The notes under the pieces were generated by a model, which did no database searches, was not told the DNA's origin, and saw only the letters and a program-made list of their open reading frames with translations. The position numbers and the translations under genes were made by a program. A stretch of 64,000 nt of DNA from a phage, in sequence record PZ295659.1. One strand, given 5' to 3'. Positions 3,631 to 59,431 of the stretch are shown piece after piece. Each line of letters opens with the position of its first letter. Position 1 is the stretch's first letter.

Positions 3631-3648
3631 AGGAGACTTCGGTCTCCT
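3631..3648 (+). terminator. Stem-loop AGGAGAC-UUCG-GUCUCCU followed by UUUU, directly after the gp35 stop
   Basis: Perfect 7-bp inverted repeat with UUCG tetraloop on the plus-strand transcript, then T-run. Confidence 0.55.
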
Positions 3649-3655
3649 TTTCGCG

Positions 3656-3663
3656 TATAAATA
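3656..3663 (+). promoter_or_regulatory. T4-type late promoter TATAAATA upstream of gp36
   Basis: Exact TATAAATA about 27 nt upstream of the gp36 ATG, with SD taaggag in between. Confidence 0.65.
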
Positions 3664-4354: not shown

Positions 4355-7300
4355 ATGGCTACTTTAAAACAAATACAATTTAAAAGAAGCAAAACTGCAG
4401 GAGCACGTCCTGCTGCTTCAGTATTAGCCGAAGGTGAATTGGCTATAAACTTAAAAGACCGTGTACTTTTTACCAAAGATGACCAAGGAAATATTATTGA
4501 TCTGGGTTTTGCTAAAGGTGGTAGTATTGACGGGAATGTTATTCATACTGGCAATTATAACCAGACTGGCGATTATACTTTAAATGGCACCTTCACTCAG
4601 ACAGGTAATTTTAATTTAACTGGTATTGCTCGAGTAACTCGCGATATTATTGCCGCCGGGCAGATTATGACCGAAGGCGGAGAACTTATTACAAAAAGTT
4701 CAGGTACAGCACATGTTCGTTTTCATGATTCAGCTGATCGTGAACGTGGCATTATTTACGCACCGGCTAATGATGGATTAACTACGCAAGTAGTTAATAT
4801 CCGCGTTCAAGACTACGCCGCTGGTGATGAAAGCACCTATGCATTTTCAGGCAGTGGTCAATTTACTTCACCTGAAGTATCGGCATGGAAATCTATGTCA
4901 ACTCCTCAGATTTTGACTGACAAAGTCATTACAGACGGGAAGAAGGCCGGTGATTATGACATCTATTCATTAGCAAATAATAATTCTAACACAGATAAAA
5001 ATAATTTACGTGTCGTACGTACCGACCCAGCGGCCGCAATGCTCCATGAAATTTGTGAAAATAACGGTATCAGTTGGTATTCCGGTTCAACCCCTACTGA
5101 TTATATGTTGTCTTTTGCTTATTCCGGTGGTTTTCAAGCAGGTCATTCGATTGCAGTAGGTATGGAATCAGGGCCTTTGACATATTCAACCTTAGGTAAA
5201 GGTTCTATTGTTCTTGGTGATAATGATACTGGGCTAAAATGGCATCAGGATGGATATTATTTCAGCGTCAATAATGGAACGAAAACATTTTTATTTAGCC
5301 CTAGCGAAACAACTAGCCTAAGAAAATTTGTAGCTGGATATTCTACTAGCGGAACCGATTTAACGACTCCTCCGACAGAAAACTACGCATTAGCCACTGT
5401 TGTTACTTACCATGATAATAACGCGTATGGAGATGGTCAGACTCTTTTAGGATATTATCAAGGCGGTAATTATCATCACTATTTCCGCGGTAAAGGTACC
5501 ACAAACATTAATACTCATGGCGGTTTGTTAGTGACTCCTGGTAATATTGATGTTGTTGGTGGTTCGGTTAATATTGACGGCCGCAACAATGCATCTACTC
5601 TGATGTTCAGAGGAAATACAACAGGATGGAGTTCAGTTGATAATATGACTATCAGCGTTTGGGGTAATACCTTTACTCATATTGATAGCGTCCGTAAAAA
5701 CGTAATGGAAATATCTGATGCCACTAGCTGGATGAGCTATATTCAAAGACTTACTACTGGTGAAGTAGAAATGAACGTCAATGGTTCATTTGAATCATAC
5801 GGTGTTACTGCTGGAAATAGTGGAGTTCACACAACAGGCGAAATTTCATCTGGAGCAGTGAATGCTCTTCGTATTTGGAACGCAGATTATGGAGCCATTT
5901 TTAGACGTTCAGAAGGAAGTCTTCATATTATTCCAACTGCTTATGGTGAAGGTAAACATGGTGATATCGGTCCACTTCGCCCGTTTAGTATGGCTTTAGA
6001 TACCGGTAAAGTTACTATTCCAGATTTACAATCAAGTTATAATACGTTTGCTGCTAACGGTTATATTAAATTTACTGGTCATGGCGCAGGCGCTGGTGGT
6101 TATGACATTCAATATGCTCAAGCGGCTCCTATTTTCCAGGAAATTGATGATGATGCTATAAGCAAATATTATCCTATTGTTAAACAGAAGTTTTTAAATG
6201 GTAAAGCCGTTTGGTCTTTAGGTACTGAGATTAGTTCAGGTACATTCGTTATTCATCATCTGAAAGAAGATGGTTCACAAGGCCATACGTCTCGTTTTAA
6301 TCAAGACGGTACTGTTAACTTCCCGGGTAATGTTCTGGTCGACGGTGATATTAACATGAAAGGCGTGATGACTTTTGACGCCGGACGTTTAGGATCACGA
6401 GATTATTTTAAATTTAACCATTGGGGTGATAGTAATAATGCTCGTGATAACATCATCCAGTTAGAAGATAGTCAAGGCGCTCATTTTTCCACTGAACGTA
6501 CTTTAGCGACAGGTGCAATTAAAACTCGTTTCTTTGGCGAAACATTTACTGATGGTACATTATACCTAAATCAGATGAATAATAGCTCTGAACGATTCCA
6601 TATCAATAATTGGGGAAATTCAGAAGCTGGTCGCGCGGCAGTGATGGAAGTCGGTGATTCCAAAGGTTATCACTTCTATACTGAACGCAGGACAGATAAC
6701 AGTTTGAATTTTGATGTTGGTGGCAATTTTACTGTGCATGGACCTAGCGGGATCACTATCAAAAACTCTGCTGGCGCTCGCCACATCTGGTTTAGAGATG
6801 ATAGCGATGCAGAAAAGGCTGTTATCTGGGCTACAGATGATGGTATTTTACATATACGAAATAATCATGGGGGTCCATTTAGTCATCACTTCCAGGGTGC
6901 AATGATTCTAGCGGGAGAGCGTGTTCCATATAATAGTGAATACGCTCTTATCCGTGGTAATATTTCCGGTGGTGCATGGGTAGACTGGCGAGATCGTCCG
7001 GCTGGATTGTTGGTAGACTGTCAGGACTCACGAAATCAAGCATATAACATTTGGAAAGCTACTCATTGGGGCGAACAGCACATTGCGGCGATGGGTGTTC
7101 ATGCTGGTGGCGGTAATCCTCATGTTGTATTGCATGTTGGTGGGAGTGATTATGCATTTGGATTTAACGGTGATTTTACTGCTGGCGCTGCTGTATATTG
7201 TAACGACGTTTATATTCGTTCTGACCGTCGTCTGAAAATTAATGTTGAAGACTACGAAGAGAATGCGGTAGATAAGGTAAATAAACTCAAAGTTAAAACC

Positions 7301-8436: not shown

Positions 8437-9096
8437 ATGGCAGCACCAAAAGTATCATTTTCGCCTAGTGATATTTTATTTGGGTTGCTAGACCGCATTT
8501 TCAAAGATAACGCCTCTGGAAATATTCTTATTTCAAGAGTTGCTGTTGTAGTTCTTTTGTTCCTAATGGCACTAATATGGTACAAAGGGAATATTTTTAT
8601 GGATTATTATGTGAGGTCTAAATATGATACTTACACAGAAGTAATTCAAAAAGAAAGAAATACACGATTTGAATCTGCGGCTTTAGAGCAACTACAAATA
8701 GTCCACGTCACATCAAGGGCGGATTTTAGTTCGGTGTATTCTTTCAGACCTAAAAATCTAAATTATTTCGTCGACCTTATTGCGTATGAAGGTAAGTTAC
8801 CTAGCACAGTAACTGAAAAATCTATGGGAGGATTTCCTGTTGATAAAACGACAGCAGAATATTCGGTCCATTTAAGTGGACTTCACTTTACTTCTAAAAC
8901 AGATTTTGCTTTCTTACCTACCAAATCAAAAACTCCGGAACTGGCGTATATGTATAGTTGTCCTTACTTCAATTTGGATAACATATATGCGGGAACTGTT
9001 TCTATGTATTGGTATAAGGGGTCGGATGTGTTAAATGAAGAACGCTTGGCTGCAATATGCAACCAAGCAGCAAGGATATTAGGGCGGGCTAAATAA
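8437..9096 (+). CDS. t: Holin t
   Basis: MAAPKVSFSPSDILFG..., single TM segment, C-terminus AARILGRAK matching remembered T4 holin; ATG at 8437 preferred over the upstream TTG at 8416. Confidence 0.9.
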   Translation: MAAPKVSFSPSDILFGLLDRIFKDNASGNILISRVAVVVLLFLMALIWYKGNIFMDYYVRSKYDTYTEVIQKERNTRFESAALEQLQIVHVTSRADFSSVYSFRPKNLNYFVDLIAYEGKLPSTVTEKSMGGFPVDKTTAEYSVHLSGLHFTSKTDFAFLPTKSKTPELAYMYSCPYFNLDNIYAGTVSMYWYKGSDVLNEERLAAICNQAARILGRAK

Positions 9097-11929: not shown

Positions 11930-11954
11930 TGTTTTGTGAGAAAAATGCACAAAA

Positions 11955-11970
11955 GGGAGCCGAAGCTCCC
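11955..11970 (-). terminator. UUCG-tetraloop hairpin (GGGAGC-UUCG-GCUCCC) with U-rich tail
   Basis: Plus-strand gggagccgaagctccc; on the minus transcript a UUCG hairpin followed by UUUUGUGCAUUUUU, between gp52 and the motA promoter. Confidence 0.5.
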
Positions 11971-12046
11971 TAATCATGTTTGTCCAACCAATACAGCCAA
12001 ATCACTAGTGCGGCTATTGCACCGAGAAATCCTAAGGCTAGGGCAC

Positions 12047-13372
12047 TCAAAGTGCCTCCAAGTCTTTAGTGTACTCTGTCACAACATCAGTAGACTTCCA
12101 ATACTCATTTTCTTCTTTCTTAGCTTTAGCTTCTTCTGCTAGTTTACGTGCTTCGTCGGAAGTGATATGGAAGATGTTAAGACCCACCAGTTTATCGACA
12201 TGTTCTTTATACATTTCGATTTGTGCTAGCTCTTCAGTCAAAGCTTTACGAGTCTTGCCTTGAATCACAATTTCACCGTTGATAACTTTTTTGATGAAGT
12301 GTGCCTTAGCAAAAGCCAGTTTAAATGCTTTTTCAGATTCAAGGATTTTGTTGTCAATACGTTTCTGAACGTAAGTCTTACGGACTTCAACAAAATCTTT
12401 GATTAAGTCCACTACGTTATCGTAGACCGCTAATTTACCCTTTTCATTAATCACTGTGATGTTTTGTGAACGACGTTCGATGAGACTAAAATCTTTCATG
12501 ATTTTTTCATGACGTAGCTCTTCATCATCAGGAAGCGAGTACTCTTTACGGAACTTCACCTTAAACCCAAAGCCGTGTTCACCGCAATCATCTTCCCATG
12601 AGATTAGACCTTTGTCTTCCAATGGGTCAAGAACCTTACTCACATACGTTTCACGGTCGAATTTATATGGGATTTCAGTTATCTGCATTTGAGTGCGAGA
12701 TGTGAACTTATATGTTCCGTGAATCTCATAACGCCCATCAACTTCATGTACTTCACCACGGAATTCCGGGAATTCAACTTTTGGCTTAGTGACATTTTTA
12801 CCTTGAAGAGCTTGTAATACAGCCTTTTTGACTGATTTAAAACTATGGGGCAGAATATTTGTTGCGTAACCGGTTGCAATACCAGAGACGCCATTCAAAA
12901 GAACTGTCGGAATAATAGGAAGATAGAATTTTGGTGGAATGTGTTCTTTATCTTCATGAGCTGGAGCATATTCAGTATCTTTATATACGTTATAGAAATT
13001 TTTACTTACACGAGCAAAAATATAACGAGATGCTGCAGCTTTTTGGACTGTTCGAGAACCAAAGTTGCCTTGGCCATCTAACAGTGGATAGTTGTTGTTC
13101 CACGTGTTAGCCATCAATGCACCTGCATCTTGTGCAGAAGATTCACCATGGTGATAACCTAAATCTGCAACACCACCTGCAATTGACGCAAGTTTATGAA
13201 ATTTTTCTTTATTACCACGAGCCAAATCTAACGCACGATGAACCACAAAACGTTGAACCGGCTTAAATCCATCAATCATGTTTGGGATTGCACGGTTTTC
13301 GACGGTGTACATCGCATATGCTAAGGCTTCGTTATCAATAATACTTTTTAGATTACGAGAATTCAATTGCAT
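12047..13372 (-). CDS. 52: DNA topoisomerase II medium subunit gp52 (GyrA-like)
   Basis: 441 aa; MQLNSRNLKSIIDNEALAYAMYTVENRAIPNMIDGFKPVQRF... as in type IIA topoisomerase A subunits; T4 position. Confidence 0.9.
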   Translation of the reverse strand: MQLNSRNLKSIIDNEALAYAMYTVENRAIPNMIDGFKPVQRFVVHRALDLARGNKEKFHKLASIAGGVADLGYHHGESSAQDAGALMANTWNNNYPLLDGQGNFGSRTVQKAAASRYIFARVSKNFYNVYKDTEYAPAHEDKEHIPPKFYLPIIPTVLLNGVSGIATGYATNILPHSFKSVKKAVLQALQGKNVTKPKVEFPEFRGEVHEVDGRYEIHGTYKFTSRTQMQITEIPYKFDRETYVSKVLDPLEDKGLISWEDDCGEHGFGFKVKFRKEYSLPDDEELRHEKIMKDFSLIERRSQNITVINEKGKLAVYDNVVDLIKDFVEVRKTYVQKRIDNKILESEKAFKLAFAKAHFIKKVINGEIVIQGKTRKALTEELAQIEMYKEHVDKLVGLNIFHITSDEARKLAEEAKAKKEENEYWKSTDVVTEYTKDLEAL

Positions 13373-13376
13373 ATTT

Positions 13377-13517
13377 TCACCATATTAATGAACGAATATC
13401 CATTATAACATCTGAAATGAAAAGCACTACTTGGATTAGTCCAAACATCACACCATAGTACAGAACCGTAAGCAACAACAAGAGCCCGAAGGCTCCTGCT
13501 AAGATTTTCTTAATCAT
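13377..13517 (-). CDS. Possible small hydrophobic protein (46 aa); overlaps a UUCG-type hairpin so may not be coding
   Basis: ATG overlaps the upstream stop as TAATG; MIKKILAGAFGLLLLLTVLYYGVMFGLIQVVLF...; region where T4 has ac/stp. Confidence 0.3.
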   Translation of the reverse strand: MIKKILAGAFGLLLLLTVLYYGVMFGLIQVVLFISDVIMDIRSLIW

Positions 13518-14989: not shown

Positions 14990-15547
14990 TTAAAGATGAA
15001 GATACCACCCGTTGTAGTTGCTCTTGCGGACGATTTTCTTTAGGTCTTCATGGTCTCCCACGAACTTTATAGAATAAGAGAAGACGTCAGGTGAGGTTTC
15101 TTTGACATCTAATATAATAATGCAATCTGCGACTCGATGGTTCAAGAAGGGCCCTATATTGATTCCATTACCACCCGGATAATCACCACTGTATCCTGTG
15201 GTAACCGAAATCCATTTAGAATCTATCTGGTGTGTCTTGACTTCTACACGAATTCCACAATACTTGGGATGGGCTAACACGTCCCATGCATACGTGTACG
15301 GGTCTTCTACGTCTTCAATACCTTTATTAACATATCCGTCTAGCCAATTTGCTACTACATACTCTGCAAAGACCGCAACCTTACAACGTCGAACTACATC
15401 TTCTTTGTTTTGGCCAGGATTTTGGCTCAGGGAATACCGAGCAGTATCAGCGATCTTCACCTTCATTTCACTAGTCAAAAACTCATTCGACAGGATAAAT
15501 GTCGGAAGATTCTTCAGTCTCAACAGTCCCAAGTTCGTCTTTACCAT
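14990..15547 (-). CDS. denB: Hypothetical protein in the position and size range of endonuclease IV (DenB)
   Basis: Start taken at internal ATG 15547 (SD agagg), giving about 185 aa as T4 DenB; assignment by synteny between ndd and rIIB only. Confidence 0.4.
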   Translation of the reverse strand: MVKTNLGLLRLKNLPTFILSNEFLTSEMKVKIADTARYSLSQNPGQNKEDVVRRCKVAVFAEYVVANWLDGYVNKGIEDVEDPYTYAWDVLAHPKYCGIRVEVKTHQIDSKWISVTTGYSGDYPGGNGINIGPFLNHRVADCIIILDVKETSPDVFSYSIKFVGDHEDLKKIVRKSNYNGWYLHL

Positions 15548-15789: not shown

Positions 15790-15805
15790 GGGGACCGAAG
15801 TCCCC
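15790..15805 (-). terminator. UUCG-tetraloop hairpin (GGGGAC-UUCG-GUCCCC) + U-run after rIIB
   Basis: Plus-strand ggggaccgaagtcccc 5 nt downstream of the rIIB stop; minus transcript ends ...GUCCCCUUUUUCUUU. Confidence 0.6.
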
Positions 15806-20401: not shown

Positions 20402-20419
20402 AAGCTCCAGAAGGAGCTT
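20402..20419 (-). terminator. Hairpin AAGCUCC-UUCU-GGAGCUU overlapping the gp39 stop
   Basis: 7-bp inverted repeat aagctcc/ggagctt with 4-nt loop. Confidence 0.4.
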
Positions 20420-22235
20420 AGGACATCCATTCTTTACGAAGTTCTGAATCATCACCCAACAACATTTCAAAGAGTTCTTTCCAATTTTCAGGAAGTTTAA
20501 CTACGTCGTACACAGGGTTCTGAATCATTTCACGATATTCTGACTTTTCAAGGGAGCCTAATCCCTTGATGTATCGAATACTATGCTTAGGAAGTGTATC
20601 TTTAGCTTCTTCATACTCAGCTACAGTATAAAACCATTTTTGAGTTTTGCCAATTTGTGCAATAATTACAGGCGTTTTAACAAAGCGAATACGTCCTTGT
20701 TCAAACAATTCAGGCCAATTACTAAAGAAAGCAAGCAAAGCTGGATAAATACTTCCAAGACCGTCATGATCGGCATCGGTCATAATTGCAATATTACGAT
20801 AGTTTGTATTCTCTGCCTTTTCACCAAGAATAAGACCTGTGATAGCACAGATATCAAAGAGCTCTTTATTCTTCATCATATCAGCATATGACATACCCCA
20901 GCTATTCATCACCTTACCACGTAATGGGAATCCGCCGTGTAGTTCACGGTCACGAACATCAATGAGATAACCAATTGCCGAATCACCTTCTGTTAAAAAC
21001 AATGTCGTATCTGCATCTTTACCACATTGGTTAGCTTTAATATGCTTATGAACCTTAGCTTTAGTTGCCTTTTTAGCTGCTTTAGTTTCTGCAGCTTTTT
21101 CTGCCGCCAATTTACGAGCTAATGCTGCTTCAACAATAGGCATAATCAAGGCTTCGTTTTTAAGAAGTGCCTGAGCAATTTTCTTAGCATCTAATTGGAT
21201 ATGATTACGAATATCACCATACGTTGACGTTAAACGTTCTTTAGTCTGAGAATCAAAACGCATGTTGCTCATGTCTCTAATAAACATCAACATTGTGAGA
21301 CATTCTTTAACACGAGCTTTAGTGACTTCAATACCCTTATATTTCTTTTTAATACCTGGCAAAAGATGTTCGCAGATATCATCCATTACACATTCAACAT
21401 GATGACCACCATTTTTAGTATGGATGTTATTCACATAAGTTAAATGACGGAAGCCATCTGGTGATGTTGTGAATGCTATAGAGACTTTATCATTTTCTTG
21501 AATGATGTTATCTTCGCCAAATTGTTTAGCAAATCGTTTAAAATTACCATCAACCTTTTTACCGTTAAATGTGAACTTGATATCAGGATAAACGACTGCC
21601 AATGTTTGAAGTCGGTCTAAAGTAATATCTAAATAAATTTGAGATAAATTATGTTCTTCAAATGAAGAGAAATCAGGAGTGAAGATTACTTTAGTGCCTT
21701 TACCTTTAGATTTCTTAGAAGACCATGATTTGTTTTCCATTCCGTTTGAACAGTTAACAGTGATTTCATTTTCGCCATCTGATGTGATGCCTGTAAACAA
21801 CGTAGAGAAGATATTAGTTAAACTACTCCCGACGCCGTTCATACCACCAGTCTTGCGTTCAGAGTCATCACCAAAGTTACCACCAGCCTTTGGAATAGTC
21901 CAGGCTGCTACAGGACCTGGAATCTGTTCACCATTTTGGTCGGTGACCATTGCTTGAGGAATACCACGTCCGTTATCTTCCACTGAGACTTGATTATTTT
22001 TAATTTGCACATCAATTTTATTTGCAAACTTAAACGATGTACGAATAGCTTCATCAACCGAGTTGTCAATAATCTCATCGATTAATTTAACCAGACCAGG
22101 AACATATTCAACTTGTTGATATTTACCAAACAAAAAACGCTCGTGGGCTTCTTTAGCCGAAGAACCAATATACATACCACTTCGTTTCTTAATATGTTCT
22201 ACATCTGACAGTACCTTAATTTCATTTTTAATCAT
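20418..22235 (-). CDS. 39: DNA topoisomerase II large subunit gp39, uninterrupted GyrB-like form
   Basis: 605 aa continuous ORF MIKNEIKVLSDVEHIKKRSGMYIGS... covering the ATPase and Toprim regions. Confidence 0.9.
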   Translation of the reverse strand: MIKNEIKVLSDVEHIKKRSGMYIGSSAKEAHERFLFGKYQQVEYVPGLVKLIDEIIDNSVDEAIRTSFKFANKIDVQIKNNQVSVEDNGRGIPQAMVTDQNGEQIPGPVAAWTIPKAGGNFGDDSERKTGGMNGVGSSLTNIFSTLFTGITSDGENEITVNCSNGMENKSWSSKKSKGKGTKVIFTPDFSSFEEHNLSQIYLDITLDRLQTLAVVYPDIKFTFNGKKVDGNFKRFAKQFGEDNIIQENDKVSIAFTTSPDGFRHLTYVNNIHTKNGGHHVECVMDDICEHLLPGIKKKYKGIEVTKARVKECLTMLMFIRDMSNMRFDSQTKERLTSTYGDIRNHIQLDAKKIAQALLKNEALIMPIVEAALARKLAAEKAAETKAAKKATKAKVHKHIKANQCGKDADTTLFLTEGDSAIGYLIDVRDRELHGGFPLRGKVMNSWGMSYADMMKNKELFDICAITGLILGEKAENTNYRNIAIMTDADHDGLGSIYPALLAFFSNWPELFEQGRIRFVKTPVIIAQIGKTQKWFYTVAEYEEAKDTLPKHSIRYIKGLGSLEKSEYREMIQNPVYDVVKLPENWKELFEMLLGDDSELRKEWMS

Positions 22236-22284: not shown

Positions 22285-22300
22285 AAGGGCCGAAGCCCTT
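22285..22300 (-). terminator. UUCG-tetraloop hairpin (AAGGGC-UUCG-GCCCUU) + U-run upstream of gp39
   Basis: Plus-strand aagggccgaagccctt between ORF 22299..22724 and gp39. Confidence 0.55.
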
Positions 22301-29950: not shown

Positions 29951-30339
29951 TATAATTTCCTCGATGGTTCACCCATATAAAGTTTTACAATACGTTCGCC
30001 TTCATCTTCGATGAGTTTCTCTTCGTGTTTCTGGAATTCTTTAGCCATATTCTCTTCAAGAACATCCAGCCAATCTTCTGGTTCGACTCCATCATTCAAG
30101 CTTTTAAACCATTTTACTATTTTGTTCATTCACAGCTCCCTGAGCTTGAACCACAATCAGAATAACTTGACCCAGAATCACCAGGCCAAGACGATACGTA
30201 TGAATGATTATAATCGGAAGAGCTTGAAGCATTAACCTGTTTTGTTTTTGGACGAACAACTTCTTCCATCATTCCGTCACCGATATATTCCCAACTTTTT
30301 TCGTGTGTATCAGGAATAGGCATCATACCTTCGCCTGGT

Positions 30340-30625: not shown

Positions 30626-30642
30626 TGTAGAAACAAAAAAAA

Positions 30643-30662
30643 AGGAATCCCGAAGGATTCCT
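30643..30662 (-). terminator. UUCG-tetraloop hairpin (AGGAAUCC-UUCG-GGAUUCCU) + U9 after soc
   Basis: 8-bp stem, UUCG loop, nine-U tail on the minus transcript, 8 nt after the soc stop. Confidence 0.7.
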
Positions 30663-30669
30663 TAAATTA

Positions 30670-31761: not shown

Positions 31762-32780
31762 ATCTTAGAATAACGAGATAATCTCATTTTAGCATGCAAC
31801 CCACTTGAAATATTCTGTTTCATATATTCTAAAATTTCTTGTGGTGTTGCATTTTCTTTCATTACCATATCATTCACATCCTTTGATCTCCATGGAGCTC
31901 GGTCCCAGAACATGACACGTTCGCCTGCATCAACTAATCGCTTCATGCGAGCTATAGTATCCGGATGCCTAGGTTCATTATCCATTACCCATACCCGACG
32001 TTCTTTAAATGGTACCACATCTAAATCTATTGAGCCGCCTGTAATAGCGATTGCATTGGGTATGAATAAACTATCAATAGGGCCTTCCATTACCCAGACG
32101 TCTCCTTCCTTAACACGTTCAACACCATAAATTTTTGTTGCAGACTCAAACGCTTTAATAGTGATATATTTCTGAGGAGCATCTTTACGAAGTGCACGTC
32201 CTTGGAATGACTCGGCCTTCCCATCTTTATTAAAAATAGGAATCACTAAACGTGGTTCTGGAATCTCTTTCTTATACGTACCAGGTTGAATCTTGTTGAC
32301 CAATTTGGGCCATTCTAATGTGAACCATAATCTGTTCCATGATTCTTTAGGAATGCATCGAGACTTAACATATTTCACAATAGGATGCTCTTCAGGCAGC
32401 TTGTCCAGACGAGAACAAGACGGCAAAGAATTTATAGTCTTTTTCTCCGGTTCTGGTTTATGTTCAGGAACCTTTTCAATCTTTGGTTCCATTCTAGCTT
32501 TTTCTTTACGAACTTCCATTAGATATTCGCGGTAAAGCTCTTCATCATACTCTTTTAAGTATCCGGAAATTGTATTGTGGTATTGACAATTATAGCAATG
32601 TACATTACCAGGAGTACCGCCATAATACCATCCACGAGCTTTCATTACATCTGTCTGGGAGTCGCCACAAACTGGACAACGAAATGTTAATTTAAATGTG
32701 CTTGAATTATTGATTTGTCTAAAACGAGGTAGGTGAGAAAACGCACGATAAGCAAATTCATTATCTATCCATTCAGCCAT
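31758..32780 (-). CDS. 61: DNA primase gp61
   Basis: 340 aa; N-terminal zinc-binding CPVCGDS...CYNCQYH and Toprim region; size as T4 gp61. Confidence 0.9.
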   Translation of the reverse strand: MAEWIDNEFAYRAFSHLPRFRQINNSSTFKLTFRCPVCGDSQTDVMKARGWYYGGTPGNVHCYNCQYHNTISGYLKEYDEELYREYLMEVRKEKARMEPKIEKVPEHKPEPEKKTINSLPSCSRLDKLPEEHPIVKYVKSRCIPKESWNRLWFTLEWPKLVNKIQPGTYKKEIPEPRLVIPIFNKDGKAESFQGRALRKDAPQKYITIKAFESATKIYGVERVKEGDVWVMEGPIDSLFIPNAIAITGGSIDLDVVPFKERRVWVMDNEPRHPDTIARMKRLVDAGERVMFWDRAPWRSKDVNDMVMKENATPQEILEYMKQNISSGLHAKMRLSRYSKI

Positions 32781-36036: not shown

Positions 36037-36058
36037 AAAGGAGACCGAAGTCTCCTTT
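36037..36058 (-). terminator. UUCG-tetraloop hairpin (GGAGAC-UUCG-GUCUCC) + U-run after gp41
   Basis: Plus-strand aaaggagaccgaagtctccttttt 4 nt after the gp41 stop. Confidence 0.65.
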
Positions 36059-36061
36059 TTA

Positions 36062-37504
36062 TTAAAATTTTAACTCATTGGCTAAGCTATCTAGGTCAGC
36101 ACGTGTTGTTTTGGCTTTACCTACGCGTTCCGTACGATTCATCTCTGCCTGACGCATCTGAGCACCTGCGTTTTCATTTACTGTGTTAGGTGTGTTCATG
36201 CCTTCTTGCTCAATCTCAACCCATTTCTGGTTGCCTTTACGTACACCCATCAGGAATTTATTCCACTTATTCTTATCACCGTATCGTGATTTGATTTGTT
36301 TGATAAGTTGTTGTTCAGCTTGTGCAAGTTCTTCGGTTTCAATTACGGCCAACATGAAATCTGCCGTTGCTGGTAAACCTGCTGATTCTGCAATATCGCT
36401 CATGTTCATATCCGAAGCATCCCATGCTGCACGTCCTACTTGAGCTGCAGTCCATAGAACTGTTTCAGATTCTACTGCTAATGCACGAAGTTCTTCTGCG
36501 ATAGCTTTAACTAATGTGTAGCTATTTTCAGTGTAAACTCTGATACGACAAGACCCACAAATACCTAAGTAATCAACCATGATTACAGATGGCACAAAGT
36601 TCTTCTTGAGTTTCAATTCATTAAGCAATGCACGGAATGTATTAGCATTAGCTCCACCAGTAGGATACTGTTTAACTACTAAACGTCCTAATGTGGATTT
36701 TGAACGCCATTTTTCCATCTTGGCTTTATATTCAGCATAAGATACGTTACCATCATCGATATCATCAAGTGATACGTCAAGCATGTTTGCATCTATACGC
36801 TTAGCACAAACTTCTTCAGCCATTTCCATGGAAATATAAAGAACATTATGACCTGTTTGAAGATAATCTGCAGCAAGTGAACAAAGGCCTAAAGATTTAC
36901 CAACGTTAACACCGGCCATTAAAACATTCAGTGTACCGGTTTCAGCACCACCTTTAGTGATTTTATTCAGAATGTTTAATTTGAACGGGACCTTACGTGC
37001 TTTGTTCAGATAAGAAAGCCAGCGGGCTTCATAGTCTTCCATCCAGTCGTGTCCAACATAACTATCAAACGAAATTGAAAGTGCTTGACGCATAATATCA
37101 GGAATAGCTCCTACGTCAGGCATTTTCTTGTTACGTTGTTCTGGAGGTAGTTCAGCATTAGACTGAATCTCAATGATTTTGGATGTAGCATTATACATCG
37201 CTTTTTGCTGGACATATTTCTCAGTTTCTTTAACCAACCATTCGTGGTCTTCAGGAGTATCAGCCAATTTTTCAATTAGGTCTGAAGTTCCTTTATATTC
37301 GGCTTCAGTTAAAGAACTGTTATCTAAAGCCACCTTTAATGCGTTGATAGACGGCATTGCATTATATTCGTTAACGTGGCTCTTTATAATTTTAAAGACG
37401 TTTTTTGCCGGTCCACGCTCAAAATACTCAGAATCCATATAAGGCCAAACCTTAGAAAAATAAGCCTGGTCATATACTAGATGAGACAAAATAATTTCTA
37501 CCAC
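36062..37504 (-). CDS. 41: Replicative DNA helicase gp41 (DnaB-like), GTG start
   Basis: 480 aa; MVEIILSHLVYDQAYFSKVWPYMDSEYF...; first codon is GTG preceded by SD aaggag. Confidence 0.9.
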   Translation of the reverse strand: MVEIILSHLVYDQAYFSKVWPYMDSEYFERGPAKNVFKIIKSHVNEYNAMPSINALKVALDNSSLTEAEYKGTSDLIEKLADTPEDHEWLVKETEKYVQQKAMYNATSKIIEIQSNAELPPEQRNKKMPDVGAIPDIMRQALSISFDSYVGHDWMEDYEARWLSYLNKARKVPFKLNILNKITKGGAETGTLNVLMAGVNVGKSLGLCSLAADYLQTGHNVLYISMEMAEEVCAKRIDANMLDVSLDDIDDGNVSYAEYKAKMEKWRSKSTLGRLVVKQYPTGGANANTFRALLNELKLKKNFVPSVIMVDYLGICGSCRIRVYTENSYTLVKAIAEELRALAVESETVLWTAAQVGRAAWDASDMNMSDIAESAGLPATADFMLAVIETEELAQAEQQLIKQIKSRYGDKNKWNKFLMGVRKGNQKWVEIEQEGMNTPNTVNENAGAQMRQAEMNRTERVGKAKTTRADLDSLANELKF

Positions 37505-37513
37505 GATAACTCC

Positions 37514-37855
37514 TTAAAAGAATTTAAATTTTTTCTTGGTCCGTTCATTAAAAGCTTGTTGTACTTGCATTGTAACACATTTTTCAACATGTGGTGCAAG
37601 TTCTGCTTTTCTGTCCTGGTCAAGAACTGCAAAGTCCATTACGATTTTACCATCAACCCAGTCTAGTTTTGTAATATAGACTATATGATGAGAACCATCT
37701 TCAAGCGTAATCAGAATCTCTTGAATGACATTTTCCATTGCTGAACGGATAATTTTAAGAGATTCATTAAACACTCGTTCTTTGCGAATGTCTTCCCCTT
37801 CCGAAGAAGGGGATTCATCAACGATTTCTAGATTTAAATCATCGAGATTATTCAT
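37514..37855 (-). CDS. 40: gp40-like small protein
   Basis: Start at ATG 37855 overlapping the uvsX stop by 8 nt; the alternative TTG at 37876 gives 120 aa; position as T4 gene 40. Confidence 0.5.
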   Translation of the reverse strand: MNNLDDLNLEIVDESPSSEGEDIRKERVFNESLKIIRSAMENVIQEILITLEDGSHHIVYITKLDWVDGKIVMDFAVLDQDRKAELAPHVEKCVTMQVQQAFNERTKKKFKFF

Positions 37856-39020
37856 CGAAATCTTCCATTTCGTCAAGGTCGTTTTCTATATCTGCTGCAG
37901 ACGGAGCATCAGAAGTTTTAACCGGAACTTTAGTTGTTGCTTTGCAATTAATAAGGTCGTTAACAGCGTCATCAACTTCTTTAATAGAAGAGATAGCACC
38001 TAGTTTATATTTAGTTTCAATTGCATCTCGGAAAGGTTTGTGTTTAAACAACGGTCCCCAGAATTCTACACAATCAGTAGCTTTAGCACGCCATGATTTT
38101 TCTTCACGAATCATTTCACCTGTTTCTTCGTCAAGGAATTCACGAGCATACCAACCAGCTTTAGGCTTAACTACAAAACCAATTTCAGTTGCCATTTCTA
38201 ACAAGCCACTGAATGGGTCAATACCACCATCAAAATTAACTGTGATCGGAAAAGTAGATTTCTCTTTAACCGTACGAGATTTTTCTGCTTTCAACGTGAA
38301 GTCATAACCGGTCAATTCTGTACCTTCTTTAACCTGACGTTTAGAGATAAAGAATACAGTGTTAGCAGAGTAAAGAATACCTGTACCACCACCCATAATC
38401 TCTTTAGGATACAATCCGCCAATTTCCATTGCGGTATGGTTAATTGCAACACACGGAATATCTTTAATAGTCAGATACGGGGTCACAATGCGGAACAGAG
38501 ATTTAAGTGCCTTAGCACGAGACATATCACCTACAACTTTCTCGTTCAATGCATCTTCGGTTTCTTTCTTAGATGCAGTATTACCGATTGAATCGATAAA
38601 GATAATAACTTTATCACCGCGTTCAATCGCGTCAAGCTGATTAGTCATATCAACTTTAAGTTGTTCGACAGATTGAATCGGAGTATGAACTACACGGTCT
38701 AAATCAACACCCATTGAACGAAAATAAGATTCTGAAGCACCAAATTCTGAATCATAGAACAAACAAATTGCATCTTTATATTTCTTCATATATGCTGCAA
38801 CCATGGTCAGACCAAACAACGTTTTAAAGTGTTTAGAAGGAGCAGCAAAAATAGTTAAGCCTGATTGCAACCCGGCATTCAGTGCACCACCTAATGCAAT
38901 ATTCAACATCGGAATACGAGTAGGGACTTCATCACGATTATTAAACAGCTTAGACTTAGTCAAGTCTGCAGTCATTTTAGAAGTAGAAGCTTTAATCAGA
39001 CGAGATTTTAAATCAGACAT
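37848..39020 (-). CDS. uvsX: Recombinase UvsX (RecA-like)
   Basis: 390 aa; MSDLKSRLIKASTSKMTADLTKSKLFNNRDEVPTRIPMLNIALGG...; matches remembered T4/RB69 UvsX. Confidence 0.9.
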   Translation of the reverse strand: MSDLKSRLIKASTSKMTADLTKSKLFNNRDEVPTRIPMLNIALGGALNAGLQSGLTIFAAPSKHFKTLFGLTMVAAYMKKYKDAICLFYDSEFGASESYFRSMGVDLDRVVHTPIQSVEQLKVDMTNQLDAIERGDKVIIFIDSIGNTASKKETEDALNEKVVGDMSRAKALKSLFRIVTPYLTIKDIPCVAINHTAMEIGGLYPKEIMGGGTGILYSANTVFFISKRQVKEGTELTGYDFTLKAEKSRTVKEKSTFPITVNFDGGIDPFSGLLEMATEIGFVVKPKAGWYAREFLDEETGEMIREEKSWRAKATDCVEFWGPLFKHKPFRDAIETKYKLGAISSIKEVDDAVNDLINCKATTKVPVKTSDAPSAADIENDLDEMEDFDE

Positions 39021-45708: not shown

Positions 45709-48420
45709 TCAAAAATCGAACATATCGAAAAGAGATGCTTTCTTCTCGTAATCGAGTTTCGCTGCTGATGTGAATCCTTCAAGTGGTTTAATAAATGTCT
45801 TCTCAAGGAGAACAGTGTAGTCCATCCAATGAAGTACGTCGTCTTTAATTAAATCTGTGATTTCAGTACCAGAAGGCCATGCGATACATTTATCACCGAA
45901 TGGGTTTCCTTCACGTAAAGGCAGAACATATACTTTTTCACCTTCTACAACTTGCGGTGCATCGATATTACCTTTGATGGCCCGGTTATATGTCAGAATT
46001 CCACGAATATGGAACGGACATTTAGGACCAGGGAATCCACCTACGTCATATTTAGCGATGTTATTCGCAGAAGATACCGACGCGATGCTAATATAATTCA
46101 ATTGACGGAATTCTTTTTCAAACTCTTTAAAATATTCTTGTAATGATTCTTCACCTTCTTGAAGCATACGACGAATACATTCTTTAAGAGCTTTCTGTAC
46201 GGCTTTAGGAGTCGAAGATTTCTGCGTCTCTAGACCCATGATTTTGAGTTTAGGCTCAGCGTAACGAGTACCTTCCATATCCCACACGTTTAATGCATAA
46301 CGTTTCTTACCAGTCCAGAATCCACCAATACCTTTAGAACCAAGTGGAGGCCCAGCGATAGCTTCTCGGTCCATGAACATTAAGTGTTGTTTATTGTTCA
46401 TGTATTCACACATTTCACGGAAACCTCTATCAATAGCTGGTTCCATACGTTCACGTGCAAACTTATCTAAGAAGTCTACCCAGTGGTTGGTATCACGGAA
46501 TTTAGATTCACCAACCTTATCGATAATTTTATCAGCAGATACGTAAATAGAGTCTGTATCACCATAAAGAACGAAAGCTTCACCTTCTGTACCACAAACT
46601 TCGTTCAGATATTCATTAACTTTACGTTCAATCCACTGTAAAGCCATTTGCCCAAATGTTGTGATTGCAGTAGCATTACGCAAATCATAATAACGGAACC
46701 AAACGTTGCCAAGTGCACCATAAAGTGAGTTGATAAGCAATTTACGGTTAATTTGAGCAGTCATACCTGCAACTTCGGTACGTTGAGCTCTAAACAACAT
46801 TTCATTAAGAGATTTAGCAGACAACTTTTTAATCTTTTCTTTAATCTCATCACTGAAGTCGAAACGATAATCAACATCTAATGGTTCGTCAACAGAAAGA
46901 TTAGGATTATGCAATGCCTCTTTAATTATTTCACCGTTACGTTGAGCTGCAAGCATGTAACCTTTATGTTCTTTACGTTGATTAAAGACCTTAGTGATTT
47001 CAGTTGGAACTACACCATCACGGTCTTTATAATACATCATGCCGTTAGGAGAGCAACTGTACACATCTGAAGGACGTTCAGCAACAGCGTTAATATAATC
47101 ATGCAATGGAGCTACTTTAAACGTTCCTGCTATTGTTTCCGGGCTAATATTCACTTGGCGAATAATACTTGGATACAGAGATGTAAGGTCGAAACTCATT
47201 ACATATTTGTATCGATTTGGAATAGGTTCCTTAACAAAAGCACCAGGATAAGGTTGAACCGGGTGAGAACGACCTTGTGGAATCACCTTGTTCTGCTCTT
47301 TAAGGCTATTAAAAATAATAGCATCCCATGTTTTAATTGGGCTAAACACAGATTGAATCTGTATCTTAGCATAATAACCCATGTCCAAACTCAAGTTGAT
47401 GAACTGACGCTTAGCATCAATTTGCAATACACGATACACGTCGATAATGTTATAAGAAATATATCGTTGGTGATTGCTTTCACGAAGCTTAGAAATAGGG
47501 CCGTCATATTTCAGTTTACCAACGTTCAATTCAAATTCTGAAATGTAATCCAGAGAATATGACGGCTGATTGGTAAAAGAGAATTTTTTGTAAAGGTCAA
47601 TGTAATCAAGAACAGAGATACCGAACAATGTAATGATTTCACGAGAACCATACATGTTTTCGATAACTTTAACACGAGTTTTACGATGTGGTGATAAACG
47701 TTTCGCAGTAGATTCGCCAAAAATATTCTTGATTCGGTTATACACATATGGAATATCAAATGACTCAACGTTCCATCCAGTCAAAATGACAGGAGTTTTC
47801 TGTTGCCAGAAGTTGAGATATTCCATCAACAATTCTTTTTCGTTATCGAACGGCATATAAATGATTTTATCGATAATTTCGGATGGAACTTCATCACCGC
47901 CTTGTTCTTGAAGCTTGGCCGCAATTTCGATAGACCATTCTTCTACATTACCATATGGAGAATTCAATAGATCAAATACGTAGAACCTGTCGTCAATTGA
48001 GTCATAATGGGTGATAGCATCAATCGGATGTTTTGCTTGTGACGGCTCAGGGAACCCATCCGGGGATGTTACTTCGATGTCGAAGTTAGCCACACGAATT
48101 TTTGTATGGTCGTATTTGATTTCATAGTTATAAGTGTCAGACAAATACGCCAATTTGAAATCGTCCATGCCAAGTGCTTCAAGTCCGATATCTTCCATGC
48201 GTTTAATCCATTGGGAGGCATCACGCATATTGGCGAACAACTTACGAGTACACGGCTTACCATAGATATCAAAATATTTCGTGGCCTGACTTTCAGGACA
48301 ATGTGCAAACAATGATGGTTTATACTCTACTTCACGAGTACGTTCACGGCCGTTAGAATCGATGTAACGTTCAAAAATTGAATCACCAATCTGTTCAACC
48401 GTTAAGTAAAATTCTTTCAT
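45709..48420 (-). CDS. 43: DNA polymerase gp43 (family B), RB69-type
   Basis: 903 aa; MKEFYLTVEQIGDSIFERYIDSNGRERTREVEYKPSLF... matches my recollection of RB69 gp43; exonuclease and polymerase motifs (YGDTDS) present. Confidence 0.95.
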   Translation of the reverse strand: MKEFYLTVEQIGDSIFERYIDSNGRERTREVEYKPSLFAHCPESQATKYFDIYGKPCTRKLFANMRDASQWIKRMEDIGLEALGMDDFKLAYLSDTYNYEIKYDHTKIRVANFDIEVTSPDGFPEPSQAKHPIDAITHYDSIDDRFYVFDLLNSPYGNVEEWSIEIAAKLQEQGGDEVPSEIIDKIIYMPFDNEKELLMEYLNFWQQKTPVILTGWNVESFDIPYVYNRIKNIFGESTAKRLSPHRKTRVKVIENMYGSREIITLFGISVLDYIDLYKKFSFTNQPSYSLDYISEFELNVGKLKYDGPISKLRESNHQRYISYNIIDVYRVLQIDAKRQFINLSLDMGYYAKIQIQSVFSPIKTWDAIIFNSLKEQNKVIPQGRSHPVQPYPGAFVKEPIPNRYKYVMSFDLTSLYPSIIRQVNISPETIAGTFKVAPLHDYINAVAERPSDVYSCSPNGMMYYKDRDGVVPTEITKVFNQRKEHKGYMLAAQRNGEIIKEALHNPNLSVDEPLDVDYRFDFSDEIKEKIKKLSAKSLNEMLFRAQRTEVAGMTAQINRKLLINSLYGALGNVWFRYYDLRNATAITTFGQMALQWIERKVNEYLNEVCGTEGEAFVLYGDTDSIYVSADKIIDKVGESKFRDTNHWVDFLDKFARERMEPAIDRGFREMCEYMNNKQHLMFMDREAIAGPPLGSKGIGGFWTGKKRYALNVWDMEGTRYAEPKLKIMGLETQKSSTPKAVQKALKECIRRMLQEGEESLQEYFKEFEKEFRQLNYISIASVSSANNIAKYDVGGFPGPKCPFHIRGILTYNRAIKGNIDAPQVVEGEKVYVLPLREGNPFGDKCIAWPSGTEITDLIKDDVLHWMDYTVLLEKTFIKPLEGFTSAAKLDYEKKASLFDMFDF

Positions 48421-48480
48421 TTAATTTCCTTTAGACGAGTTATTGTCTTTTGTTTGTTGATGAACTTATTATACTCCAAA

Positions 48481-48496
48481 TGGGACCGAAGTCCCA
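48481..48496 (-). terminator. UUCG-tetraloop hairpin (UGGGAC-UUCG-GUCCCA) between regA and gp43
   Basis: Plus-strand tgggaccgaagtccca 6 nt after the regA stop, about 60 nt upstream of the gp43 ATG. Confidence 0.55.
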
Positions 48497-48501
48497 TTGC
48501 T

Positions 48502-50400: not shown

Positions 50401-50475
50401 GTAATTTTCCTCATTATCATTAAACTGGAGGATTTCTCCTCCATAATCGTATCACAATAAACGTAAAGCTTTGAC

Positions 50476-55059: not shown

Positions 55060-55112
55060 ATTATTTCCTCATTAGTTAATTCATTCTATCATCCGTTTAT
55101 AAAGCAAAAAAA

Positions 55113-55132
55113 AAGGAACTCCGAAGAGTTCC
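55113..55132 (-). terminator. UUCG-tetraloop hairpin (AGGAACUC-UUCG-GAGUUCCU) + U8 upstream of gp47
   Basis: 8-bp stem, UUCG loop, eight-U tail; overlaps the stop of the small ORF 55131..55289. Confidence 0.7.
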
Positions 55133-55289
55133 TATCCACATAGTACACCGTACAGAGGCTCACGGTTCGATTTGAACTTGATCGGCCTACGGGTAATAGT
55201 ACCTTCTGCTTTAGCTTTTTCATATGATGCGTTAAAACGCTTAATCATATTAGTTTTGCTTTCTCTAATCTTGTTGAAATCGATGTCCA
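55131..55289 (-). CDS. Possible small basic protein (52 aa)
   Basis: ATG with SD aagga; not in the six-frame track (under 60 aa); followed by the terminator hairpin. Confidence 0.35.
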
Positions 55290-59062: not shown

Positions 59063-59107
59063 TGGATTATATTAGAAATGAGATAAAGAAGACCAGGCGG
59101 CACCTGG

Positions 59108-59431
59108 TCAATCTTCTATAATATCAGAGTCATATCCTAATGAAATCAAGGACTTTTTAAACTCTGCAATATTCTTTTGTTTCTTATCATTTAAAAATAT
59201 GACAGGATAACGAATATTAAGTGAAGTGAATCCTGCACGTTTAGCAAGAGATACGATTAAAGGACGGTCATATTCAATCTTACCATTATTAGTGAGGACT
59301 TTATAAAATGTATAAGGAGCATTGAGCTCCTTTAAAAGTTTTGTAACAGTATAACATCCCGGACAACGTCCTACTTCTTCAGGGATGCCGTAAATTTCAA
59401 TCTTATTCTTTAAGTTCGAGTTTTGTTCCAC
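59108..59431 (-). CDS. nrdH: Glutaredoxin/NrdH-like redoxin (start uncertain, possibly GTG)
   Basis: KIEIYGIPEEVGRCPGCYTVTKLL with CxxC active site; no in-frame ATG near the start, GTG at 59431 preceded by aagga. Confidence 0.45.
   Translation of the reverse strand: MEQNSNLKNKIEIYGIPEEVGRCPGCYTVTKLLKELNAPYTFYKVLTNNGKIEYDRPLIVSLAKRAGFTSLNIRYPVIFLNDKKQKNIAEFKKSLISLGYDSDIIED

Follow-up and report, generated by a model that had tools for sequence, protein, structure and literature searches.

A family of C(UUCG)G hairpins at cistron ends in an RB69-like T-even phage, probable terminators or attenuators joined to promoters

Gene context and census of the hairpins

The window, as we call the whole 64,000-nucleotide stretch of phage DNA analysed here (sequence record PZ295659.1), belongs, judging from its sequence, to an RB69-like T-even phage (Mosigvirus). 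Its gene 43 (DNA polymerase), a 903-codon ORF at 45709-48420 on the minus strand, is 98% identical to that of RB69 and relatives; the first 25 kb share 96% identity with Mosigvirus phages such as ChristianSchoenbein, identity between the window and Mosigvirus phages is 96-98%, and the RB69/T4 gene order is kept. Up to about 9.1 kb the plus strand carries the late tail-fibre genes 34-38 and t, and beyond that point the minus strand carries early and middle genes, from asiA to nrdC. The G+C content is 37.5%. Genes 39 and 60 are fused in this phage, without a bypass element, whereas T4 gene 60 has a translational-bypass hairpin. An Rfam scan of the whole window returned no family at the gathering threshold.

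Scanning for UUCG loops with perfectly complementary flanks (at least 6 bp, at least three G-C pairs) yielded ten hairpins, all closed as C(UUCG)G on stems of 6-11 bp (Table 1; sites are named below by their first coordinate). Nine lie on the minus strand and one (3629-3650) on the plus strand, in all ten cases the transcribed strand. The initial annotation had named nine of these sites, all of which exist, their ends moving by 0-5 nt once terminal A-U and G-U pairs are included; the hairpin it placed at 55113-55132 is there but truly spans 55114-55133, a shift of one, and it had missed the tenth, an 8-bp hairpin at 37794-37813 on the minus strand. RNA folding of each site, the check suggested there, gave stable structures with predicted minimum free energies of -9.4 to -16.5 kcal/mol, while the best remaining sense-strand UUCG site reaches -8.3 kcal/mol.

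That some stems are short (6 bp) might suggest chance inverted repeats in an A/T-rich genome, but 300 dinucleotide shuffles scanned with the same criteria gave an expectation of 0.19 hairpins (maximum 2) against the ten observed, all ten are in the sense orientation and the stems show compensatory changes, which refutes chance, a reading to which we assign practically no probability. The hexamer CTTCGG occurs 30 times in the window compared with 15.9 expected. As RNA, CUUCGG forms a hairpin at 10 of its 12 sense occurrences and at none of its 18 antisense ones (Fisher p = 2e-6), and among 39 minus-strand tetraloop hairpins nine carry a UUCG loop, the runner-up, GAAA, accounting for three. Considering the shuffle excess, the CTTCGG excess, the strand bias and the share of UUCG loops, the family is real and far above chance, and the asymmetry between sense and antisense indicates selection on the RNA and not on a DNA palindrome.

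Eight of the ten sites are intergenic, the placement that had been claimed for the family, while 13476-13501 and 37794-37813 lie within coding sequence. At eight of the ten, the stem starts between -2 and +6 nt from the upstream stop codon: four stems overlap it (those at gene 35, at the possible 26-codon ORF after gene 52, at the ORF before gene 39 and at a-gt.2), and the stems behind rIIB, soc, 41 and regA begin 3-6 nt past it. A strict terminator scan, requiring a G/C-rich stem-loop followed by a U-tract of at least five U in 8 nt, was passed by 15790, 22285, 30642 and 55114. A weaker U-tract (3-4 U, part of it pulled into the stem by an upstream A-run) is present at 3629, 11954 and 36037, and none is present at 13476, 37794 and 48479, nor at a related GAAA hairpin at 50426. 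The initial description of the hairpins as usually followed by a U-run is borne out by the four strict and the three weaker cases and fails for the remaining three. Directly after most hairpins comes a promoter element, which is late at 3629, early-type (TTTACA-N16/17-TAnnAT) at 11954, 30642 and 36037, a MotA box TTTGCTTTA with an 11-12 nt spacer and TAGAAT at 22285 and 55114, and a -10 element at 48479.

Table 1. Hairpins of the window and T4 UUCG hairpins at orthologous positions (T4 rows in T4 coordinates)
Element	Coordinates	Strand	Stem and loop	Predicted free energy (kcal/mol)	Location
UUCG hairpin	3629-3650	+	9 bp, AAAGGAGAC-UUCG-GUCUCCUUU	-13.8	overlaps gene 35 (tail fibre) stop
UUCG hairpin	11954-11971	-	7 bp, AGGGAGC-UUCG-GCUCCCU	-15.5	between gene 52 and motA
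UUCG hairpin	13476-13501	-	11 bp, UUCG loop	-16.5	codons 6-14 of the gp52.1 ORF
UUCG hairpin	15790-15805	-	6 bp, GGGGAC-UUCG-GUCCCC	-12.0	5 nt past rIIB stop
UUCG hairpin	22285-22300	-	6 bp, AAGGGC-UUCG-GCCCUU		overlaps stop of ORF upstream of gene 39
UUCG hairpin	30642-30663	-	9 bp, AAGGAAUCC-UUCG-GGAUUCCUU		6 nt past soc stop
UUCG hairpin	36037-36058	-	9 bp, AAAGGAGAC-UUCG-GUCUCCUUU		3 nt past gene 41 stop
UUCG hairpin	37794-37813	-	8 bp, UCCCCUUC-UUCG-GAAGGGGA	-16.1	5' end of gene 40
gp43 translational operator	48433-48448	-	AGAC-AAUAACUC-GUCU		30 nt downstream of the UUCG hairpin at 48479
UUCG hairpin	48479-48498	-	8 bp, AAUGGGAC-UUCG-GUCCCAUU		3 nt past regA stop, upstream of gene 43
GAAA hairpin	50426-50443	-	UGGAGGA-GAAA-UCCUCCA		between 45 and 44, 25 nt before gene 44 AUG
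UUCG hairpin	55114-55133	-	8 bp, AGGAACUC-UUCG-GAGUUCCU		overlaps a-gt.2 TAG
T4 UUCG hairpin	5381-5398				upstream of 39
T4 UUCG hairpin	15303-15324				after soc
T4 UUCG hairpin	22329-22348				gene 40
T4 UUCG hairpin	29952-29969				after regA
T4 UUCG hairpin	38715-38734				after a-gt.2

Sites at gene ends and within genes

The plus-strand hairpin at the end of gene 35 is followed after 5 nt by the late promoter TATAAATA (3656-3663), ahead of gene 36, and T4 has GGGACC-CUUCG-GGUUCC, a U-run and TATAAATA in the same place. Its 22 nt recur identically at 36037-36058, with dissimilar flanks. Behind the latter copy, the tail is CGGGGUUUAC and an early-type promoter lies at 36031-36003; this hairpin is predicted to be a weak terminator or attenuator. 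At the gene 41 site no hairpin was found in T4, and other genera have six different UUCG stems, most with real U-tracts. The hairpin at 11954 overlaps the TAG of a possible 26-codon hydrophobic ORF and continues into the tail UUUGUGCAUUUUU, with an early-type promoter at 11928-11901; its T4 counterpart, after motA.1 and upstream of motA, is AGGGAGAGC-CGAG-GCUCUCCCU with a U-run.

Terminator anatomy is evident at 15790, where the tail UUUUUCUUU is followed by the Shine-Dalgarno sequence and AUG of the next ORF; orthologues at the rIIB site have the stems GGGGC, GGAGGC and AAGGGAC, and the T4 version is bulged. The strongest terminator anatomy among the hairpins is that at soc (30642), with seven U after the stem (nine including the last two of the stem) and an early-type promoter at 30624-30596. 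At 22285 the U-run merges into the MotA box TTTGCTTTA (22284-22276), the -10 element TAGAAT being at 22263-22258. The stem at 55114 is followed by eight U (nine including its own last U), with the MotA box at 55108-55100, TAGAAT at 55088-55083 and then gene 47, and in other genera the stems at this site differ.

A hairpin at 13481..13494 had been taken as an argument against the small ORF that contains it. This ORF (13377-13517, 46 aa, product MIKKILAGAFGLLLLLTVLYYGVMFGLIQVVLFISDVIMDIRSLIW) is the conserved gp52.1, with 72% identity to T4 gp52.1, annotated in T4 and in the close Mosigvirus relative ChristianSchoenbein, and its protein pattern YYGV...FISDVI...W-stop is recognisable down to about 31% identity across genera. 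Because gp52.1 is conserved and the hairpin, specific to the RB69 group, falls within its variable N-terminal transmembrane segment, the hairpin is no evidence against the ORF. Being restricted to close (Mosigvirus) relatives, the hairpin has no covariation support; the tail behind it is rich in U, with interruptions. About 45 nt downstream, a middle promoter of the P52 type, with a MotA box, is predicted. The TTGCTTA right after the hairpin was rejected as a MotA box, since the orthologue of T4 P52 and RB69 Pm:164206 is the promoter about 45 nt further downstream, and the match may be a coding coincidence.

Real T-even genes do carry internal hairpins, and gene 40 is the second case in the window. 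Here the hairpin lies 34 nt past the uvsX stop codon and has no U-tract. The same spot carries a hairpin in at least 54 of 67 loci, on essentially unrelated stems and with UUCG, UCAG, GGAA, GAAA, UAAG or CUAGU loops, pairs having been counted in loop-anchored gapless sets. From T4 to the window, CCC/GAG is replaced by CCU/GAA, a double-synonymous compensatory change that leaves the peptide DESPSSEGE unchanged.

The tail of the regA/43 hairpin (48479), UGGAGUAUAAU, contains no U-tract, but GGAG (48477-48474) and a -10 TATAAT (48473-48468); the sequence that follows the hairpin is GGAGTATAAT. Relatives retain this hairpin on stems that covary, with UUCG, GAAA, UACG, UCCG, UUAC or CGUG loops, and a 'terminator' is annotated at this junction in two GenBank records. 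We rejected it as the gp43 translational operator, which is a separate 16-nt hairpin (48448-48433) with an 8-nt loop, about 30 to 12 nt before the gene 43 start codon in the window; a review gives about 40 bases for T4 and describes the RB69 operator as a 16-base hairpin with a UAAC-containing loop identical to that of T4. Two further candidates were discarded. A MotA box (TGCTT) doubling with ...GCTTCGG... does not fit, as the window has GACTTCGG, the spacing to TATAAT is 13-15 nt and the RB69 model has no Pm there, and a general RegB processing module based on GGAG after hairpins would apply to one of the ten window sites. In T4, the -30 region of the mapped P43 falls inside the hairpin.

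The GAAA hairpin at 50426, with its GNRA loop, appears to be a member of the same functional family. At the orthologous 45/44 position, T4 (31899-31914) and the majority of other genera carry a UUCG loop, on more than 15 different stems, as opposed to GAAA in the window, making it the clearest case of loop exchange.

Conservation among relatives and published precedents

T4 has UUCG hairpins at five positions orthologous to those of the window, with stems that differ by changes on both sides, and the bulged T4 UUCG hairpin after rIIB is a sixth positional counterpart. Lineage-specific are the window sites after gene 41 and in 52.1 and the T4 sites at stp, 55.3, 37/38, denB.1 and the gene 60 bypass. 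In T4, each of the mapped middle-promoter starts P39 (5349), P43 (29933), P47 (36576) and PmobB (38682) follows a UUCG hairpin, 19-33 nt past its 3' edge, the distance being 32 nt from 5381-5398 to P39, 19 nt from 29952-29969 to P43, and 31-33 nt from 38715-38734 and 36607-36626 to PmobB and P47, respectively. With these four mapped starts, the order of hairpin followed by promoter is experimentally anchored in T4.

The wider comparison comprised 144 IMG/VR loci anchored on RegA, gp41 and rIIB. At the soc site the hairpin is present in 40 of 41 loci and the U-tract is kept in all 24 distinct sequences, in which 98.6% of cells pair and five of nine pairs show changes on both sides; this covariation was matched by none of 500 shuffles and collapses in slid registers. 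At the regA/43, 41, rIIB, uvsX/40, 45/44, 47 and 39 sites the hairpin is kept and the stems vary. For every ortholog set except that of soc, a hairpin was a condition of entry, which inflates the paired percentage of the innermost five pairs; what is informative there is how many different stems occupy one and the same position. Loops in relatives are mostly UUCG, with rarer UACG and UCCG (UNCG class), GAAA and a recurrent CUAGU pentaloop. Enterobacterial T4-like (Tevenvirinae) loci contain 76 distinct sense UUCG hairpins versus 4 sense CGAA and 2 antisense UUCG ones, and the UUCG enrichment is absent in distant, probably cyanophage or marine, T4-like loci. When ORFs of 40 codons or more are considered, the hairpin begins -3 to +6 nt from the stop in 108 of 148 distinct UUCG hairpin contexts from relatives. 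Stems, and sometimes loops, turn over freely, whereas position and pairing are kept.

The hairpin family is already known and well described for T-even phages, and the RB69 annotation already lists most of its members as terminators. The T4 CUUCGG hairpins go back to Tuerk et al. 1988 (PNAS 85:1364), as related in PMC7165471 and PMC8948821, in whose accounts they occur on the sense strand only and are mostly intergenic. The window hairpins have in common with the T4 C(UUCG)G hairpins the loop, the closing pair, the sense exclusivity, the placement at cistron ends and the phage subfamily. Rho-independent terminators predicted in RB69 with TransTerm (Nolan et al. 2006, PMC1524935, Additional file 6) match the window at 35-->36 (3629), motA<--52 (11954), 60plus39<--ORF005c (22285), mrh.2<--soc (30642), ORF041c<--41 (36037), 47<--a-gt.2 (55114) and 44<--45 (50426), which covers six of the ten UUCG sites and the GAAA hairpin. 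The regA/43, uvsX/40, 52.1 and rIIB hairpins are absent from that list, and UUCG loops are not mentioned in the searched main text and supplement of the same paper. Predicted RB69 promoters adjoin three of the sites, Pm:5538 (22285), Pm:40046 (55114) and Pe:14950 (30642) (PMC1524935). The reading put forward in the initial annotation, that of T4-type C(UUCG)G hairpins with a role in termination or mRNA stabilisation, gains support from the strand bias, the adjacency to stop codons, the covariation and the RB69 and T4 annotations; its picture of a uniform, terminator-like and UUCG-only family does not hold, as three members lack a U-tract and the 45/44 orthologue has a GAAA loop.

Cassettes that join a stem-loop to an early promoter (PeSL) or to a MotA box (PmSL) have been described (Arbiol 2010, PMC2839356; Comeau 2014, PMC4122927), and the stem-loop of an RB49 terminator-promoter cassette terminated transcription in a reporter about as well as rrnB T1. 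The early architecture of PeSLs (TTTACW-N17-TAYWAT) is present at 11954, 30642 and 36037 and that of PmSLs (TGCTT MotA box and -10) at 22285 and 55114, and the proposed role as terminator or attenuator is the same for cassettes and window hairpins. PeSLs, however, are found in hyperplastic regions, flank ORFans and show conservation over about 100 bp that drives recombination, whereas the window sites mostly flank core genes. Mutually similar repeats of about 100 bp, as in PeSLs, were not found among the window sites, where the architecture alone recurs between dissimilar flanks. The T4 mobB/a-gt block stands between two hairpin-MotA-box modules, of which the window has one, and this is the single case favouring a cassette.

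With intrinsic terminators of E. coli the hairpins share a G/C-rich stem of 6-9 bp, a tetraloop, in part of the set a U-tract, and the same host polymerase; unlike these, the window stems overlap or crowd the stop codon and three have no U-tract. The T4 gene 60 bypass hairpin, whose loop is also UUCG, and the gp43 operator are likewise stable small hairpins of T-even mRNAs. No usable 3'-end maps of this phage, T4 or RB69 (Term-seq, 3'-RACE, cappable-seq) were found in the literature searched.

Proposed role and competing readings

Starting from the observed hairpins, their strand specificity, their placement and their compensatory conservation, we consider it very probable that the C(UUCG)G hairpins of the RB69 group are terminators or attenuators joined to promoters, with a minority of decay barriers. 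Their anatomy and the published work on T4, RB69 and RB49 suggest both termination and stabilisation, and the hairpins would serve as RNA-level punctuation that closes a cistron or transcription unit at its 3' end, in most cases with the next promoter right behind it. Once the host RNA polymerase has passed the stop codon, the G/C-rich UUCG stem would fold in the nascent RNA, and where a U-tract is present the structure would be an intrinsic (Rho-independent) terminator or a partial attenuator, shielding the promoter behind it, whether late, early or MotA-dependent middle, against read-through. As three or four members have no U-tract, the label 'terminator' is too narrow for the family as a whole. 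For these (48479, 37794, 13476 and 50426) we infer that the hairpin is most likely kept in read-through mRNA, where it could block 3'-to-5' exonucleases or set a segmental decay boundary, and where it may also damp translation of the containing or downstream cistron.

The UUCG tetraloop is unusually stable, and T4-type C(UUCG)G hairpins are characterised by a stability sufficient to stop reverse transcriptase. On established knowledge of tetraloops, UUCG is probably favoured because it yields more stability for its length than any other loop, in a genome that is compact and A/T-rich; through it, a phage with 37.5% G+C obtains strong RNA structure from a very short sequence. In practical terms, the hairpins help the annotator of an RB69-type genome to see where one transcription unit ends and the following promoter begins, and a stable hairpin is no evidence against a small ORF. 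The current understanding of T-even gene expression is unchanged.

The absence of a U-tract from three UUCG hairpins and the GAAA hairpin, which are nevertheless conserved with covariation, raises the possibility that all members are mainly mRNA stabilisers or decay barriers, either 3' caps against RNase II, RNase R or PNPase or processing boundaries, with transcription mostly reading through. The U-runs would then be incidental, belonging to A/T-rich spacer or to MotA boxes, whose 5' part is rich in T, and those at 22285 and 55114 do merge into an (a/t)(a/t)(a/t)TGCTT box; published work also indicates that much T4 prereplicative expression needs extension of upstream transcripts and protection from nucleases, and that T4 mRNA is degraded by 3' exonucleases. 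We regard this as possible but unlikely, given that the U-tract is kept in all 24 sequence variants of the soc site, that four sites satisfy the strict intrinsic-terminator definition and that the comparable RB49 stem-loop terminated strongly in a reporter; nor does stabilisation explain the fresh promoter right after most hairpins. Somewhat further down the scale of probability, we doubt that the elements are primarily DNA-level recombination cassettes (PeSL/PmSL) for modular gene shuffling, with any RNA function secondary, although a recombination role may exist alongside the RNA role. The combination of hairpin with early promoter or MotA box, the insertion of T4 mobB and a-gt exactly between two such modules where the window has one, and the use of the same 22-nt hairpin at two unrelated window loci fit such cassettes. 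A palindrome is strandless, yet UUCG is in the sense orientation at 10 of 10 sites here and in 76 versus 4 cases in relatives; orthologous stems diverge freely, which leaves less homology for recombination, and the sites are mostly beside conserved core genes and not in hyperplastic regions.

The proximity of stems to stop codons leads to another proposal. In five cases the stem overlaps the stop codon or all but reaches it, and with transcription and translation coupled, a ribosome that terminates there would cover the 5' arm and could keep the polymerase from stopping, a point against the terminator reading; the hairpins might on that account be translation-gated attenuators, at which transcription terminates when upstream translation lags or is repressed. 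The spacing of -2 to +6 nt at eight of ten sites, and the close spacing in 108 of 148 (73%) contexts from relatives, would suit this mechanism, as would the published dependence of T4 delayed-early RNA synthesis on ongoing translation. Tight spacing, however, is also expected from simple genome compaction, and the translation dependence has been explained otherwise in the literature, by Rho polarity and nuclease protection, and we rate the proposal as improbable. If true, a message that is untranslated, RegA-repressed or RegB-cut would terminate, providing a general, factor-free link between translation and the extension of early transcripts in T-even phages, and the tolerance of conserved hairpins within genes 40 and 52.1 would be explained. 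Very improbable, in our judgement, is a role as binding sites for the phage RNA-binding regulators gp43, RegA or RegB/S1, that is, as translational operators or nuclease targets. In its favour, the leader between regA and 43 contains the 48479 hairpin, with the RegB core motif GGAG after it, and RegB processing has been reported to stimulate gp43 synthesis. The gp43 operator is nonetheless a different hairpin, with the loop AAUAACUC, and RegA sites are published as unstructured and A/U-rich and RegB as inhibited by secondary structure. GGAG follows one of the ten hairpins only, and the freely covarying stems argue against sequence-specific recognition by a protein.

Hairpins with changing stems and loops at orthologous sites

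The tenth C(UUCG)G hairpin of the window is located 34 nt downstream of the uvsX stop codon and is part of the gene 40 coding sequence (Table). Of 67 related loci, at least 54 retain a hairpin at this site, with stems and loops that are unrelated to one another. Where T4 has CCC/GAG, the window has CCU/GAA, a compensatory pair of changes that is synonymous and falls within the conserved peptide DESPSSEGE. In one locus at the uvsX/40 site (L086), the loop is UUUG rather than UUCG, in a relative that is 99% identical.

The 45/44 junction carries a GAAA tetraloop in the window, 25 nt upstream of the AUG of gene 44, whereas at the orthologous site T4 and most other genera have a UUCG loop, on more than 15 different stems; a U-tract is never present. 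In several other genera, orthologous hairpins recurrently carry a C(CUAGU)G pentaloop in place of UUCG, e.g. at uvsX/40 (L112), upstream of gene 47 (L007 and L019) and upstream of gene 39 (L141); it is the most frequent sense-strand pentaloop among the related loci, with 10 distinct hairpins. At the soc site of a single phage (L123), the loop is inverted to CGAA and the rest of the soc terminator is unchanged.

Hairpins and open reading frames of the window (all coordinates in nt)
Feature	Position	Strand	Remarks
Terminator-like hairpin, 12 bp	9043-9069	-	called on -; inside 3' end of + strand t (holin) gene
Candidate hydrophobic ORF, 26 codons, LSALALGFLGAIAALVIWLYWLDKHD	11970-12050	-	TTG start overlaps gene 52 stop
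gp52.1 homologue, 46-codon ORF	13377-13517	-	conserved; T4 gp52.1 is a small hydrophobic protein
Terminator-like hairpin, AAGCUCC-UUCU-GGAGCUU	20402-20419	-	3' of gene 39+60
Fused topoisomerase genes 39 + 60	20418-22235	-	one 605-codon ORF
C(UUCG)G hairpin, tenth of the window	37794-37813	-	8 bp, -16.1 kcal/mol; within gene 40 5' end
gp43 translational operator hairpin, AGAC-AAUAACUC-GUCU	48433-48448	-	
GAAA-tetraloop hairpin, stem UGGAGGA/UCCUCCA	50426-50443	-	genes 45/44 junction
Terminator-like hairpin, GACCAGGU-GCC-GCCUGGUC + U-rich tail	59091-59109	-	nrdH/55.6 junction

Repeated hairpins and the module upstream of gene 47

The hairpins at 3629-3650 (+) and 36037-36058 (-) are identical over all 22 nt when each is read on its own sense strand (AAAGGAGACTTCGGTCTCCTTT), with unrelated flanking sequences. 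Their AAGGAGAC/GTCTCCTT stem is also found at the 45/44 junction in three related loci (L022, L024 and L025). One module of hairpin and MotA box (55083-55133, -) separates a-gt.2 from gene 47 in the window, whereas in T4 (L003 36576-38734) mobB and a-gt are flanked by two near-duplicate modules of hairpin and GCTTTAT, the MotA box. This difference looks like an insertion or deletion bounded by cassettes of the PmSL type, the published stem-loop and middle-promoter cassette of T4-like phages.

Hairpins, small reading frames and the fused topoisomerase gene

The candidate 26-codon ORF occupies the same position as T4 motA.1, and a comparison of the two did not find clear similarity; the first two bases of the 11954-11971 hairpin are also part of the TAG of this ORF. 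An 11-bp UUCG hairpin is contained in the variable N-terminal segment of the gp52.1 homologue, whereas T4 instead has a UUCG hairpin in stp (T4 165510-165525); stp appears to be absent from the window. The T4 gene 60 translational-bypass element, which has a UUCG hairpin of its own (T4 2834-2857), is absent from the window because genes 39 and 60 are fused, an arrangement shared with RB69.

The regA/43 leader, and terminator-like hairpins with other loops

The regA UUCG hairpin is followed, 30 nt downstream, by the gp43 operator hairpin, whose 8-nt loop is identical to that of T4; a GGAG between the two hairpins (48477-48474) is a candidate RegB site. The nrdH/55.6 hairpin corresponds to the TransTerm entry '55.6<--nrdH' of RB69 (PMC1524935), and the 12-bp hairpin adjoins the convergent t/asiA junction.
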